From positions 30,001-62,000 of the forward strand of contig CAZECW010000113.1 of NCBI GenBank assembly GCA_964510585.1: a stretch of DNA of 32,000 nucleotides. The letters are read 5' to 3'. The notes below the pieces were generated by a model. The model did no database searches. It was not told the origin of the DNA and was given only the letters and a program-made list of their open reading frames with translations. Position 1 is the first letter of the stretch. The number at the start of each line of letters is the position of its first letter. Positions 8,803 through 20,794 of the stretch are shown here, piece by piece. This DNA comes from an uncultured archaeon. Its GTDB lineage: Archaea; Asgardarchaeota; Jordiarchaeia; Jordiarchaeales; Jordiarchaeaceae. The position numbers and the translations under genes were made by a program.

Positions 8803-11800
8803 ATGCCCCTCTATAAGGACGTTGAAACTACACCTGATTATCCAAAAATCGAAGAGGAAATCCTAAAATTCTGGAAGCAAAACAAGATATTCCAAAAAAC
8901 CCAAGAATTCCGGGAAAAAAACAATAAGGGATGGTTCGTTTTCCTTGAGGGCCCGCCCACCGCAAATGGGTTGCCCCACGTAGGCCACGTTCTAACCAGA
9001 GCGGTAAAAGATGTGGTTATGAGATACAGGACAATGAAGGGCGAGTATGTAAACCCTCGACGGGCTGGGTGGGACACTCATGGTCTTCCGGTGGAGCTTG
9101 AAGTTGAAAAGGCTCTGGGTTTGAATAGCAAGAAGGAAATTGAGGAGTACGGTGTTGCAAAGTTTAATGAGAAGTGTAGGGAAAGCGTTTTCCGCTACGA
9201 GAAGGAATGGGTTAGGATGACGGAGCGTGTAGCCACCTGGATGGATATGGATAATCCCTATGTTACACTTGAGCCGTATTTTATTGAGTCTGTTTGGTGG
9301 TCTTTGAAGCAGATTTGGAGCAAGGGTAACCTGTATCGTGATTACTATGTGGTCTTGTATTGTCCTCGCTGTGGCACCCCTTTAAGTGCACATGAAGTGG
9401 CTTTGGGTGGCTATAAGGATGTTAAGGATCCCTCTATTCATATTAAGTTTAAGCTGTTGGGGGAGGAAAACACTTATTTTTTGGCTTGGACGACTACGCC
9501 TTGGACCCTGCTTTCTAATGTGGCTTTGGCGGTTCATCCAGATTATGATTATATTTTGGTGGAGTATAAGGGTGAGCGGTTGATTCTAGCTAAGGCTCTC
9601 CAAATGGTTCTTGAGGGTAATTACAAGATTGTTCGGGAGTTTAAGGGTAAGGAATTGGAGGGCTTAGAGTATTGGCCACTGTTTGATTTCGTTAAGCCAG
9701 AGAAGAAGGCTTTTGTTGTGGTTTTGGCGGATTTTGTCACCCTCACTGAGGGTACCGGTATTGTACATATGGCTCCAGCTTTTGGCGCTGAAGACTTTGA
9801 AGTCGCCAAAAAATATGACTTGGCAATTATACAATTGGTTGACGAGGCCGGCCGCATAAAGGAAGAAGCCAAACCCTTTGCCGGGATGAAGGTTAAGGAT
9901 GCGGATAAAAAGATAATTGAAGCTTTAAGAGAGAAAGGACTACTCTTCCGCGAGGGAGTTTTGGAACACGCTTATCCCTTCTGCTGGCGCTGCGATACCC
10001 CTCTTCTCTATTATGCCATTGAAACATGGTATATTAAATTGAGTGCTCTGCGGGAGAATCTACTCCGGAACAATGAGAAGATAAACTGGTATCCTCGACA
10101 CCTTAAGCATGGACGCTTCGGCAACTTTCTCGAGGAGGGCAAGGACTGGGCTCTAAGCCGTAACCGATTTTGGGGAACACCACTTCCCATATGGAAGTGC
10201 GATAATAAACACTATGTTTGTGTGGGAAGCTTCAAGGAGCTAGAAGAGTATGCAGGCCCTCTACCTAAGGATTTTGATCCCCATAGACCCTACGTGGACC
10301 AGATTACTTTTGCCTGTCCTGAGTGCGGTGCAAATATGAAGAGGGAGCCCTACGTAATTGACTGTTGGTACGATTCTGGTGCAGCATCATTTGCGGAGCA
10401 TCACTACCCATTTGAAAACAAAGAATTTTTTGAGAAAACTTTCCCAGTAACATTCATCACAGAAGCCATAGATCAGACTCGAGGCTGGTTCTTCAGCCTG
10501 CACGCTGTGGCAACCGCTGTTTTCGACAGTCACGCATATCAGAATGTGGTTTCCCTAGGCCACGTTCTAGACGAACACGGACACAAGATGAGTAAATCTC
10601 GGGGAAACGTTGTTGACCCGAATGTAATATTTAGAAATGAGGGCGCGGATGCAATGCGCTGGTACTTCTTTGTGTCCAGCCCACCTTGGGCACCTAAAAG
10701 ATTCAGTGAAAAAATGGTGATTGAAACCAGAAACCATTTCCTGAATACTCTCTGGAACGCCTATTACTTCTATGTCACCAACGCCAACATAGACGATTTT
10801 AATCCTTACGATGATAAATTCAAGAAAAAGGATTCGCAGAACATTCTTGATAGGTGGCTTAAAAGCAGACTGAACCGCGTTATCAAAATTGTGGACTCAA
10901 GTATGAAGAGCTATATGATCCACACCGCTGCCAGAGCAATCGATAAGTTTGTGGTGGACGAGTTAAGCAATTGGTATATTAGAAGGTCTAGGAGAAGATT
11001 CTGGAGGGCGGAAATGGACGAGGACAAAATCGCCGCCTATCACACACTCTTTGAAGCCCTGGAAAAAATAGTGAGAATTCTAGCACCATTTATACCACTA
11101 ATATCTGAGGCCATGTACCAAAACCTTTCCAAGGGAAACGGTGAAGCACCTGAAAGTGTACATATGACAGACTTCCCAGAATTCAAGGAGGAACTATTCG
11201 ATGATGAACTAGAGAAAAGTATGGGTTTAGCCATTGAAATTTCAAGTGCAGGACGCGCCGCCAGAGCCAGCAAAAACATAAAACTTAGACACCCCCTCCA
11301 AGAGCTGGTGGTAGTGGCAGATTCGGAAAGTCTAGATTACATAAAACCCTTAGAACACGTATTAAAGGACGAACTTAACGTTAAAAATGTCAAATATGAA
11401 ACTGACGATTCCAATTATGTCACCTACAAGCTTAAACCCAACTACAAAAACATCGGTCCAAAGTTTAAGAACCTAGCACCGAAAATAGTTCAAGAATTAG
11501 AGAGACTGGATCCTAAGGAAGCTGCACAGAAGCTTGCGGGACAGGGCAAGCTCACATTGTTCATTGGCGGTGAACAAGTGGAACTAACAAGTGAAGAAGT
11601 TGAAGTTGAAACTCTTGAAAAGGAGAATTATGTGATGGGCCAGGCCGGCCACGTAAAAGTATTTCTTAACACCATAATTACCCCCGAACTGGCAGAAGAA
11701 GCTCTGGCTAGAGAAATAGTGAGAAGAATACAGACTATGAGAAAAGAGATGAACCTTGACTACATGCAGAGAATAGAAGTATACATAGACTGCAGCAACA

Positions 11801-16527: not shown

Positions 16528-17751
16528 TTGTTTGAGGAAAATAGATTAACAAGAAAATCTACCATATTGTCGGGTGCAAACTTGCCTAAAGAGCTAGTAT
16601 CTTTAAGAAGGCTGTTAAAAAGGTATTTCAGATTAATTGCAGACTACTCCAAGGAACTCTACTCGGTGGACGACGGGTTCACAAAGCAAACAGAAAAGGA
16701 ATTTAAACAATATAAAACCAACCTTGTTCTTGAAGTAATCCAACAGTCTACCAAGTCTCTATCACAGTTCATATCATTCCTAGACACGCTTGTAAACGCC
16801 CTGAACCTCTGGTTTGAATTTTTCTTCAGCATAGTTAATTCTCTCGGGACACAGCAGTATTATGATATTATCCGCGGGAAAGTACGACTCGAAGAAATTG
16901 TAAAACCCGAAAAGGTTGACCTACACTTCCTGAGGTTTAACGTGGAAAACTCTGTAGCCTTCATTTATCCAAAAATAAAAGAACTATTCTCGGTCTTACT
17001 ATCCGAGGTAAAAGGTATGCTTAGCATTTTAAAAACCATAAAGTCTGAAGTCGCGGAACAATTTATAAATGAGTTGGAAGAAACATTAAAAAAGTGGCTG
17101 GCATCTGAAGAAAACCTCTACTGCATAATTGAGGAGGCACTACAAGACCAATCGGTAAACAGCGTAAATAAAATCATAAGCCTAGCTAACTATCTAATCG
17201 ATTTCGCCCGAAACTTTCTCCACTGCATTGGGTATATTAGTCCATCTATAAAGGCGGGAGAGGAGTACGAACTAGACGACTTCGTTACAGTCCTGGAGCA
17301 GATTAAAGGTATACAAAAGGATTTAACATTAATCCTTGATTTTCGAAGAAAAGCATATGAACATTCAGAAAAATTCAATGAGCAAATACCAATAGCTCTT
17401 TGGGGAGACAGAGAGACAGCTCTTAAAAAGTTCGAAGCCTTTGCCCGTTTCGAATTAAAAACTGATAAATTGATTCCGGAAAATGTTAGTGCCGAGGATC
17501 TGGCCTTTGGTTTAGTGCAGGCAAAGGCAGAACTCAACATTGTTAGTAATGCAATCGAAATGGAAAAAGAAAAAATATATGCACTTAAAGCCGCTGCGGA
17601 TCTTCTTGAGAGTCCTATCCTAAAAATCCTATATCAAGGCATATTAAAGAGAAGAAAAATAGCAAAAAAGTATATACAGCTTCTCTACCAAAATTTGGAT
17701 GATTTACAGAGAGAAACACAAAAAGTTCTAGAGTCAAAAGGCCAACATTAA
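16528..17751 (+). CDS. Hypothetical all-alpha protein
   Basis: 407-aa ORF filling the gap between thioredoxin and gdhA; amphipathic helical pattern throughout; no family recognised. Confidence 0.8.
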   Translation: MFEENRLTRKSTILSGANLPKELVSLRRLLKRYFRLIADYSKELYSVDDGFTKQTEKEFKQYKTNLVLEVIQQSTKSLSQFISFLDTLVNALNLWFEFFFSIVNSLGTQQYYDIIRGKVRLEEIVKPEKVDLHFLRFNVENSVAFIYPKIKELFSVLLSEVKGMLSILKTIKSEVAEQFINELEETLKKWLASEENLYCIIEEALQDQSVNSVNKIISLANYLIDFARNFLHCIGYISPSIKAGEEYELDDFVTVLEQIKGIQKDLTLILDFRRKAYEHSEKFNEQIPIALWGDRETALKKFEAFARFELKTDKLIPENVSAEDLAFGLVQAKAELNIVSNAIEMEKEKIYALKAAADLLESPILKILYQGILKRRKIAKKYIQLLYQNLDDLQRETQKVLESKGQH

Positions 17752-19140: not shown

Positions 19141-19505
19141 ACATCCTATAACCAGCTCAACAAAGTTATTCCATTTTTCATCTATTTTCTTTCACAAATT
19201 TAGAGAAGCAATAATCATACTCTTGCAGGATTAAGTTAACTCCATTTTTAAAAAATGAGGAAATCTCAGTTAAAAATAGGTATTTGGAGACTAATCTTGA
19301 CTGGGGCGATGCGGGTTGGCAACTATATTTTAATCGTTTTTTGAGACTTGAAAAATGAACTATAAATTTTTCAGTCTGGAAGCCAAACCTAATGAATCCA
19401 TAAAATAGGGTGAGGAAGGATTATATAGGACTAATTATTTGTACTGTTAACGTTGATTTAGTAACCGCGAACAAACTTACCTGAAACTTTGGAGTAGTGA
19501 TTATT

Positions 19506-19850
19506 TTGGATATAACCATTACACAGATGGCACTAGAATACATTGCCAAAGCGTCGGAAACAATTTCCAACAGCAAAGAAAAACCAGCCTTAGCCATTTG
19601 GGCGGATAGAGTCTACACTTGAGGCGGTAGCCGGGTGGAAATAAGGTTGGATGTGTATCCTGAAAATGAAATCCTAGAAGTTGAAGGATTTGAAAACAAG
19701 GGTAATTTGAATGGCACTGATATACCGCTCTACATACACAAAAACGCTTATGACTTCCTGCCGGAGAAACCGAACATTGACTGTTCAGGACTTCTCTTAA
19801 AGAGACTATTTATCTCCAACTTTACACCCGTACGCTTTGGACGATGTTAA
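19506..19850 (+). CDS. Probable HesB-like selenoprotein (in-frame TGA at 19620-19622 read as Sec39)
   Basis: One frame from TTG 19506: MDITITQMALEYIAKASETISNSKEKPALAIWADRVYT-TGA-GGSRVEIRLDVYPENEILEVEG...PLYIHKNAYDFLPEKPNIDCSGLLLKRLFISNFTPVRFGRC. HesB-like N-terminal ITITxxAxEYI pattern, xUGG motif, C-terminal Cys. GTG 19497 is an alternative start. Confidence 0.72.
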
Positions 19851-19854
19851 ATAC

Positions 19855-19930
19855 GGGGAAAGGAAATGATTCATCTCCCAAAAGTATAAAGGGATGATAA
19901 TCAGACGGACAAGCACCGTCAAAATTCCCC
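19855..19930 (+). promoter_or_regulatory. Structured 3' element, SECIS candidate
   Basis: Closing stem GGGGAA (19855-60) / TTCCCC (19925-30). Hairpin 1: TGAT/ATCA plus TCATC/GATGA with A-rich loop, preceded by ATGA (19866). Hairpin 2: GACGG/CCGTC. Begins 5 nt after the stop. Confidence 0.4.
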
Positions 19931-19990: not shown

Positions 19991-20794
19991 TCATATTGTT
20001 AATTTTAGCGAGTCGTATCCAATTATGATTTTTTTTCGAAGGGGGTCCACTTTTTCTTGTAGCTTTTCGTGGGGAGGATTTAGGTGAGCAAGGTGGATTA
20101 GTACCGTTTTTTTGGCATTCAAGGTATTTGCTAGTTCTTTGGCCTCATTTACAGTCATATGGTGGTCTAAAAAGTGGGTTGGCTTGTCAATGAATGCATC
20201 AGTTATAAGAAGGTCTGGATTTTTTATGAGTCGGAGTGATTCTTCGGGAATTTTCACTCCAGTATCACCCGTAATCACAAGCTTTTTGCCATTTATATTA
20301 AAGCTGTAGCCTATAGGTTGTATGTACGAGGCGGGATGGGTAACATTCCAGGTGGGGTGATAGACGGGAAAGGCTTGAAACTGAATATTGTGATAGTCCA
20401 CGGTTTCGTAAAGTTTTATTTCTTTACGCTTTGCGTTAATTATTTTGAAGCCCATTCTTTCTAGGACAAAGTCTAGAGTTTCCTTTAATCCGAACACTTT
20501 AATGAAATTCTGTACACGGTAGAACTCACTGAATCCCAGAATGTGGTCATAGTGGTGATGTGTGTAGAGAACCGCGGCGATTCTCCTTATCCCTTCACGG
20601 ATTAGCTGAGCCCTGAGGTCTGGGCCGGTGTCTATAGATATGTTTCTGTCTTTTTCTGGATCACGTATAAGTATCCCAAATCGAGTTCGAGAGTTAGGAA
20701 TCCCCTGCTCCCTCGCCAAGGTACACGATTCACAGTTACAATTCAACGTGGGGGTTCCAACAGTATCTCCGCTTCCCAGAATAATGATTTCCAA
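19991..20794 (-). CDS. Metallo-beta-lactamase-fold phosphodiesterase, PhnP-like
   Basis: ILGSGDTVGTPTLNCNCESC (Zn site), IDTGPDLRAQL, THHHYDHILG, ITGDT, HHMT, LIHLAH. Confidence 0.9.
   Translation of the reverse strand: MEIIILGSGDTVGTPTLNCNCESCTLAREQGIPNSRTRFGILIRDPEKDRNISIDTGPDLRAQLIREGIRRIAAVLYTHHHYDHILGFSEFYRVQNFIKVFGLKETLDFVLERMGFKIINAKRKEIKLYETVDYHNIQFQAFPVYHPTWNVTHPASYIQPIGYSFNINGKKLVITGDTGVKIPEESLRLIKNPDLLITDAFIDKPTHFLDHHMTVNEAKELANTLNAKKTVLIHLAHLNPPHEKLQEKVDPLRKKIIIGYDSLKLTI

Follow-up and report, generated by a model that had tools for sequence, protein, structure and literature searches.

The nearest described counterparts of the gene analysed here are the HesB-like selenoproteins (TIGR01911), which are likewise of about 100 residues, belong to the HesB/IscA superfamily, occur in archaea and anaerobes and carry one selenocysteine (Sec, U) at the first conserved cysteine. 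The Methanococcus maripaludis member MMJJ_08070 was shown by 75Se labelling (PMC11097638), and the motif given for the family is UxGP (PMC13188914). Across all archaea, a 2026 review counts 11 selenoprotein families (PMC13188914), and an Asgard-wide survey that used the known families as queries, the HesB-like one included, reports seven families with, in the portions of that paper available to us, no HesB-like protein among them (PMC11227280). The selenoproteins listed for the Jordarchaeia are HdrA, Prx and MvhD (PMC9723677), those for the Freyarchaeia HdrA, a Prx-like protein, SPS and VhuU (PMC11291895), and full-text literature searches returned no Asgard IscA-like selenoprotein. Here we examine a 32,000-nucleotide stretch of contig CAZECW010000113.1 (assembly GCA_964510585.1, positions 30,001 to 62,000 of the forward strand; hereafter the window) from an uncultured archaeon of the Jordiarchaeia, and describe in it a gene at 19497-19850 that, with a probability of roughly 0.85 in our estimate, encodes one 117-residue HesB/IscA-fold selenoprotein, whose Sec42 is inserted by means of a eukaryote-like selenocysteine insertion sequence (SECIS) and which represents a distinct, almost exclusively Sec-containing family. 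The window genome (G000) is a metagenome-assembled genome (MAG) of 3.78 Mb in 217 contigs, 96% complete with 4.8% contamination; in what follows, G, C, L and f are our handles for genomes, contigs, loci and genome families.

On the forward strand, the frame that runs from 19497 or 19506 to the TAA at 19848-19850 is interrupted once, by a TGA at 19620-19622 within Y-T-U-G-G-S. Calling of open reading frames (ORFs) with translation table 11 yields two pieces, 19497-19622 (41 residues) and 19635-19850 (71 residues), which bears out the preliminary description of the locus as a hidden read-through frame with a single TGA that standard callers truncate. That description had begun the protein at TTG 19506, for a length of 114 residues and Sec at position 39, and here it needs correction. 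A GTG three codons further 5', at 19497, is retained in position in seven further homolog loci and is replaced by ATG in two, and an N-terminal fragment held in the protein database (P0007) is called from the same start. GTG 19497 is thus the likely start, judging by this comparison, giving a product of 117 residues with Sec at 42. The principal features of the gene, in which TGA-form and Cys-form refer to homologs with a TGA or a cysteine at the Sec position, are:

19497..19850, + strand: predicted selenoprotein coding sequence, 117 codons plus TAA, GTG start, IscA/HesB-like fold
19620..19622, + strand: UGA, the probable selenocysteine codon, residue 42; invariant in TGA-form homologs, Cys in the Cys-form subfamily
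19845..19847, + strand: codon of the C-terminal Cys117 (protein end G-R-C), the likely partner of Sec42

The behaviour of this codon among relatives points to Sec as its most likely meaning. A word-indexed protein search returned two full-length homologs (P0003 and P0004; 118 residues, about 60% identity) with W at the Sec position, and their DNA has TGA at that codon, the short contigs having been called with TGA as tryptophan. Because W is a calling artefact in these two entries, a check made on proteins only would have wrongly counted against Sec. The expectation set out in the preliminary description, that homologs should have Cys or TGA and not Trp at this place, therefore holds once the DNA is consulted, with Cys found in one subfamily. 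An exhaustive profile search of 1.84 billion representatives recovered mainly N-terminal fragments that stop exactly at the TGA and C-terminal fragments that begin after it, and reading through the loci behind the database fragments at the DNA level placed a TGA at the aligned codon in all of them. The same holds for five loci of named MAGs (Candidatus Jordarchaeia, Ca. Jordarchaeum madagascariense and Ca. Freyarchaeota), one of which is the closed genome CP147778. One further match of the representative search, the 1887-residue repeat protein P0010, looks like a spurious repeat match and was set aside.

When 400 Asgard genomes were searched in all six frames with the family profile, 23 matches were obtained in 22 genomes; 22 of the matches have exactly one TGA (TGA-form in 21 of the 400 genomes) and one is of Cys-form. 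The TGA-form is present in all five genomes of the window's genome family (f1) and all five of its sister family (f2), and the family as a whole has a member in 11 of 11 genomes of the window's order (Jordarchaeia/Freyarchaeia), is scattered through other Asgard lineages and, in the searches made, is confined to Asgard genomes. All TGAs share one column of the 23-sequence alignment, and the codon is invariant in the TGA-form homologs, metagenome contigs included, down to about 30% identity, with synonymous changes in the codons next to it; chance would not come near to producing such a pattern. Seven pairwise comparisons involving six homolog sequences revealed differences biased to third codon positions both in the 41 codons before the TGA and in the 75 after it (for example, [6,7,17] and [17,8,41] on either side), which argues that both halves are under protein-level selection in one frame. 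Elsewhere in the window genome TGA is an ordinary stop: of 1457 long open frames, 298 terminate with it, the adjacent gene at 19991-20794 being one of these.

The 3' untranslated region (3'UTR) holds a structured element that would serve as the recoding signal:

19855..19930, + strand: three-way-junction 3'UTR element holding the putative SECIS, recognized by fold and covariation; begins 5 nt after the stop codon
19855..19930, + strand: basal helix GGGGAA (19855-60) with UUCCCC (19925-30), which closes the three-way junction
19862..19903, + strand: SECIS kink-turn (K-turn) hairpin of AUGA_AA type, with AUGA at 19866-69, helix, AAAA at 19880-83 and UAAU at 19898-19901
19904..19920, + strand: second hairpin, GACGG-ACAAGCA-CCGUC, directly 3' of the SECIS hairpin

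The minimum free energy of the window's 3'UTR is -25.3 kcal/mol (z = -4.4), and none of 200 shuffles folded equally well or better. The SECIS hairpin has a helix of 7-8 bp and lies 246 nt downstream of the UGA, within the range of 30-500 nt given for the Jordarchaeia (PMC9723677), and conservation in the 3'UTR equals that of the coding sequence. A covariance model trained on nine loci finds six further ones, three of them in distant Asgard genome families. In the alignment of these 15 loci, which was itself fitted to the covariance model, pairing holds in 95% of cells and compensatory double changes occur at 16 of the 20 pairs; none of 500 shuffles reaches this and slid controls fall far lower. 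For the second hairpin, 100% of cells are paired and four of five pairs covary. The core has an invariant UGA at 15 of 15 loci, preceded by A (12) or G (3), with U-[G8/A7]-A-U on the 3' side, and the apical loop, which has no mini-stem, opens with AAA or AAAA in the majority of homologs; in the f2 loci, which are GC-rich, it opens with AAG.

By these properties the element matches the lokiSECIS or eSECIS-like type I elements of Asgard archaea, which, in the parts of the two reports available to us, are defined by an AUGA_[G/A]A core and an adenine-rich loop (PMC11227280, PMC4989117); the window's 3'UTR has both, as a K-turn core and unpaired apical adenines. The location in the 3'UTR and the spacing of about 10 nt between core and A-rich loop also agree, in the same parts of those reports, whereas in the window a three-way junction has the SECIS hairpin as one arm and a conserved hairpin with a loop of approximately RAAGCR as the other. 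This second hairpin goes unmentioned in the SECIS passages of PMC11227280 and PMC4989117 that we had at hand. The recoding signals also differ from those of the HesB-like selenoproteins: a eukaryote-like K-turn SECIS in the window's family, a GAA_A SECIS in methanogens and an in-frame SECIS in bacteria.

Within the window genome, the full three-way-junction model matches strongly at this locus only. Comparison by eye and by folding showed an [A/G]UGA kink-turn hairpin 3' of each of the genome's two Sec-containing mvhD genes, and after it a second hairpin whose loop contains (A)AAG(G)C; at the first of these elements the basal helix visibly closes both hairpins:

C76:15778-15866 (L100:1897-1985): mvhD 3' element, SECIS plus second hairpin
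C150:29660-29732 (L099:1900-1972): mvhD 3' element, SECIS plus second hairpin

The genes for PSTK, SelB and SepSecS are clustered on contig C146 of the window genome, its SelD carries U in GUSCK, and each of its two mvhD genes has two TGAs. The Sec machinery on which the preliminary description had made its reading depend is therefore found as PSTK, SelB, SepSecS and SelD, with tRNA-Sec represented by a candidate below threshold. The tRNA model RF01852 at default settings, ARAGORN, and Rfam on the Sec cluster (E ≤ 1) returned no tRNA-Sec, and an anticodon-and-acceptor scan gave nothing convincing. A relaxed search gave a 106-nt candidate with a UCA anticodon at C146:17140-17245(-) (L009:1055-1160), 1.1 kb from SepSecS, with the anticodon loop CUUCAAA. 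Its D-arm region is unusually long, its acceptor and T stems are weak, and an intron may be present. tRNA-Sec has been reported for the Jordarchaeia (PMC9723677) and for the Freyarchaeia, the lineage of the same-genus genome G117 (PMC11291895).

Two observations on this genome stand apart. ARAGORN found only 6 tRNAs in its 3.78 Mb, which suggests many intron-containing or atypical tRNA genes, and selD (C193:53341-53700, L003) has, besides its Sec codon, an in-frame insertion of about 30 nt with a TAA inside the conserved DVY-A-IGG motif.

The read-through product is predicted by AlphaFold2, from a nine-sequence alignment, as a single domain that extends across both halves (predicted local distance difference test 88.7, predicted template modelling score 0.81), with Sec42 in the loop between strands 30-39 and 45-55. 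Nine of its ten best structure matches in the PDB have the HesB/IscA fold, namely IscA (1r94, 1s98, 1x0g), SufA (2d2a), DsrR (2k4z), AQ_1857, HI1723 and two Lactobacillus 'Fe-S biosynthesis' proteins; the top five (1r94, 2d2a, 2k4z, 1s98, 1x0g) reach Z scores of 8.0-8.7 over 93-98 residues, with unrelated chains from Z 2.5. Foldseek against AFDB/Swiss-Prot returned IscA, ErpA and the N-terminal domain of NfuA, each at probability 1.00. Profile-profile comparison (hhalign) of the 23-sequence family with 16 Asgard PF01521 proteins gave an E value of 1.8e-6 and a probability of 79%, aligning Sec with the cysteine of GGC(S/A)G, the first invariant ligand, and the terminal Cys with the C-terminal Cys region of IscA. 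Structure prediction and profile comparison thus agree on the HesB/IscA fold named in the preliminary description. In IscA of E. coli, the first invariant ligand is presumably Cys35. Scanned against Pfam and NCBIfam, the read-through protein matched no relevant family, and a sequence-profile search of the PDB gave no match either. Intermediate scores against PF01521 come from a distant TGA-form member (24.0 bits, G124:C38) and from Cys-forms (19.4 and 17.5 bits).

With IscA, SufA and ErpA (PF01521) the protein has in common the fold, the N-terminal helix start I-T-(I/L)-T-x-x-A, a ligand in the β2-β3 loop and a Cys-bearing tail, and it differs from them in having Sec for the first Cys and a single terminal Cys for C-G-C, and in scoring below the Pfam threshold. 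Of the three ligand cysteines of IscA (C...C-G-C), the first is here Sec42 and the C-terminal pair is reduced to Cys117. DsrR and the NfuA N-terminal domain, which are among the best structural matches, use the IscA fold without the full set of three cysteines; whereas they have lost cysteines, the window's family keeps the first ligand position, as Sec. The family is a distinct branch of the HesB/IscA superfamily, outside TIGR01911 and linked to the superfamily at the level of fold and profile-profile comparison only.

Only one match of the 400-genome scan, locus L061 of genome G310, is free of a stop. Cysteine occupies its Sec column, and a family hidden Markov model (HMM) from which this sequence had been left out scores it at 46 bits along its whole length. 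Its genome, 96% complete, has no full-length SepSecS (the best score, 47 bits, is at paralogue level), whereas full SepSecS scores 355-435 bits in 10 of 10 TGA-form genomes tested. Together with P0014-P0017, L061 makes up a small Cys-form subfamily, whose members carry the precomputed Pfam label PF28096.1; the Sec forms carry no label.

Every member has one Cys partner for Sec, at a place that varies by subgroup. A terminal G-x-C is conserved across the Jordarchaeia/Freyarchaeia-type subgroup and the Cys-form, a second subgroup lacks the terminal Cys and has one at U+6 (S-U-S-G-Y-F-C and similar), and two sequences have theirs at U+1. Around Sec itself, the window's U-G-G-S is replaced by URGS, USGY, USRT, UTMA or UCGT in relatives. 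Cys96 of the window protein (IDCSG), the extra Cys that the preliminary description had cited as a sign of divergence, is not conserved, being Y or Q in relatives; the conserved partner is the C-terminal Cys.

Several loci depart from the usual arrangement. Tandem paralogues of the U-x5-C subgroup occur at G273:C89:10016-10300 and 10600-10875 (L054/L062), each with its own TGA and SECIS-like 3' element. N-terminally truncated remnant copies (L034-L036 and L050, the last at G116:C56:2799-2978) adjoin a resolvase gene, have a TGA at a different, non-homologous position and keep the second hairpin of the 3' element with loss of the kink-turn hairpin; they have the appearance of decayed copies that a recombinase has moved or disrupted. 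L048 (G112:C153), from a 73%-complete MAG, is apparently frameshifted near its C-terminus, and its SECIS model match starts inside the apparent end of the ORF; this is probably an assembly error.

In the window's genus, the selenoprotein gene follows a glutamate dehydrogenase gene and precedes two metallo-β-lactamase (MBL)-fold genes and an EamA gene. In family f2 the neighbour is SIR2, and elsewhere assorted genes are found. The sole iron-sulfur (Fe-S) or sulfur-relay context seen is that of G137, a closed Asgard genome of 6,035,313 bp (L104, G137:C1:2047000-2063000), in which the member at about L104:7806-8102 follows a class-V aminotransferase (cysteine-desulfurase-like) gene and that of a 130-residue membrane protein; IscU (NifU_N) and ferritin genes lie 4-5 kb upstream and a PP-loop ATPase gene lies opposite. 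Upstream of the gene in the window is one further feature:

19421..19427, + strand: putative archaeal TATA box TTATATA, about 70 nt 5' of the start, with a presumed promoter function

Its TTATAT core and the region downstream are conserved in a three-locus alignment (about 60% protein identity). The segment 19428-19496, from this candidate to the GTG, is conserved at the nucleotide level across these loci beyond what a plain leader would lead one to expect. Further 5', ahead of the glutamate dehydrogenase gene, the + strand has a 407-residue ORF (16528-17751) to which no Pfam model matched.

Two alternative accounts deny that the UGA is recoded. The codon could be a true stop, separating two small ORFs or marking a decayed pseudogene, with the 3' structure a terminator or an unrelated RNA. 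Such an account fits the two ORFs given by table-11 callers and the storage of the halves as separate proteins in databases; it leaves unexplained why the TGA is held at one codon to about 30% identity while flanking codons vary synonymously, why a single confident domain spans the halves, why a Cys-form exists and why the RNA has an invariant K-turn core and not a U-tract terminator, and we regard it as highly improbable. A genome-wide code change, with TGA read as Trp, Gly or another standard residue, would accord with the short-contig homologs that were translated with TGA as W, but roughly one in five long open frames, the neighbouring MBL-fold gene among them, terminates in TGA, in-frame TGAs were otherwise seen only in the known selenoprotein genes selD and mvhD, and the full Sec machinery is present, so that we give this possibility next to no credence.

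The remaining alternatives accept Sec and concern what kind of protein carries it. An ordinary member of the HesB-like selenoprotein family already described from Methanococcales and anaerobic bacteria would share with the window protein the superfamily fold, the small size and Sec at the first conserved HesB/IscA cysteine, and such proteins are established in archaea (PMC11097638, PMC13188914). However, TIGR01911 found none of the family's loci and no sequence above its cut-off in any of the 400 Asgard genomes, the published UxGP stands against UGGS, URGS, USGY and similar motifs here, and the homology-based Asgard survey with HesB-like queries found none in the portions available to us (PMC11227280); we hold membership to be unlikely. 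Here the preliminary description was right in part: the HesB-like fold and a divergent, lineage-specific character stand, whereas a place as a subfamily of the TIGR01911 selenoproteins does not, given the missing HMM match and UGGS in place of UxGP. It is possible, if not what we would expect, that this is a real IscA-fold selenoprotein that carries no cluster and acts as a selenol/thiol redox protein, through a selenenylsulfide between Sec42 and a resolving Cys. Exactly one nearby partner Cys per member, at varying places (C-terminus, U+6 or U+1), is what such a protein would have, since resolving cysteines typically show this pattern; the CGC pair that provides ligands in true A-type carriers is absent, and IscA-fold proteins without cluster ligands exist, DsrR among the top matches being one. 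Most uncharacterised selenoproteins are, moreover, thought to be redox proteins (PMC13188914). On the other side, Sec occupies the exact IscA ligand position, one member lies beside cysteine-desulfurase-like and IscU genes, and no thioredoxin-like partner or reductase is linked to the gene.

Several results weigh against a HesB/IscA-fold selenoprotein recoded through this SECIS. The tRNA-Sec candidate scores 22.6 bits with RF01852, against a gathering threshold of 47, and has a poor acceptor stem. PF01521 (gathering threshold 26.3 bits) matches neither the window protein nor anything else in its genome, and TIGR01911 (cut-off 66.35 bits) likewise has no match to the protein or the genome at E ≤ 10. 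Cluster binding is not assured, since the protein has residues corresponding to just two of IscA's three ligand positions. The gene neighbourhood is not conserved outside the order and the Fe-S context is a single case. An Rfam scan of the locus and 3'UTR returned no SECIS family, only noise; the Rfam SECIS models likewise miss the Lokiarchaeal SECIS elements, according to the part of that report available to us (PMC4989117).

Under the reading that we prefer, the UGA at 19620-22 would be read as Sec by the Asgard archaeal Sec machinery, with the eukaryote-like kink-turn SECIS in 19855-19930 as the recoding signal. Sec42 would then sit in the β2-β3 loop, at the site of IscA's first invariant cluster-ligand cysteine, and Cys117 would stand in for the C-terminal CGC ligands. 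The Sec/Cys pair might take up an Fe-S cluster, or a related Fe/S/Se species, and pass it on in the manner of A-type carriers, or might cycle through a selenenylsulfide; one partner Cys at varying places fits either a two-ligand bridged Fe-S or metal site, as in dimers of A-type carriers, or a pair of Sec and resolving Cys. Of the two, we consider a role as Fe-S or Fe/S/Se carrier, with Sec as a ligand, slightly more likely than one as a redox protein.

A stronger version of the carrier reading, which we consider rather doubtful, is that in the Jordarchaeia/Freyarchaeia the Sec protein is the only A-type-carrier-like protein, and that late Fe-S (or iron/sulfur/selenium) trafficking there would be selenium-dependent and make use of a selenolate ligand. 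The idea arises because PF01521 proteins were found in 0 of 11 genomes of the window's order and the family is present in 11 of 11. We know of no Sec-ligated Fe-S carrier in any domain of life. The broader notion that the family replaces canonical IscA across Asgard archaea is weak, as about 358 of the 400 genomes have neither protein.

In our assessment the selenoprotein family is new, whereas the superfamily to which it belongs and the recoding system it would use are both known. The gene would add to the archaeal selenoproteins a family that homology-based surveys overlooked and that annotation splits into two 'hypothetical' fragments, with Sec at a cluster-ligand position of an iron-sulfur carrier fold and universal in one Asgard order. 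Its clean, covarying eukaryote-like SECIS, with an extra conserved hairpin, bears on the evolution of SECIS recognition between archaea and eukaryotes. Should the protein prove to be the sole carrier of its kind in these Asgard archaea, it would be a Sec-ligated Fe-S carrier, and late-stage Fe-S trafficking in them would depend on selenium.

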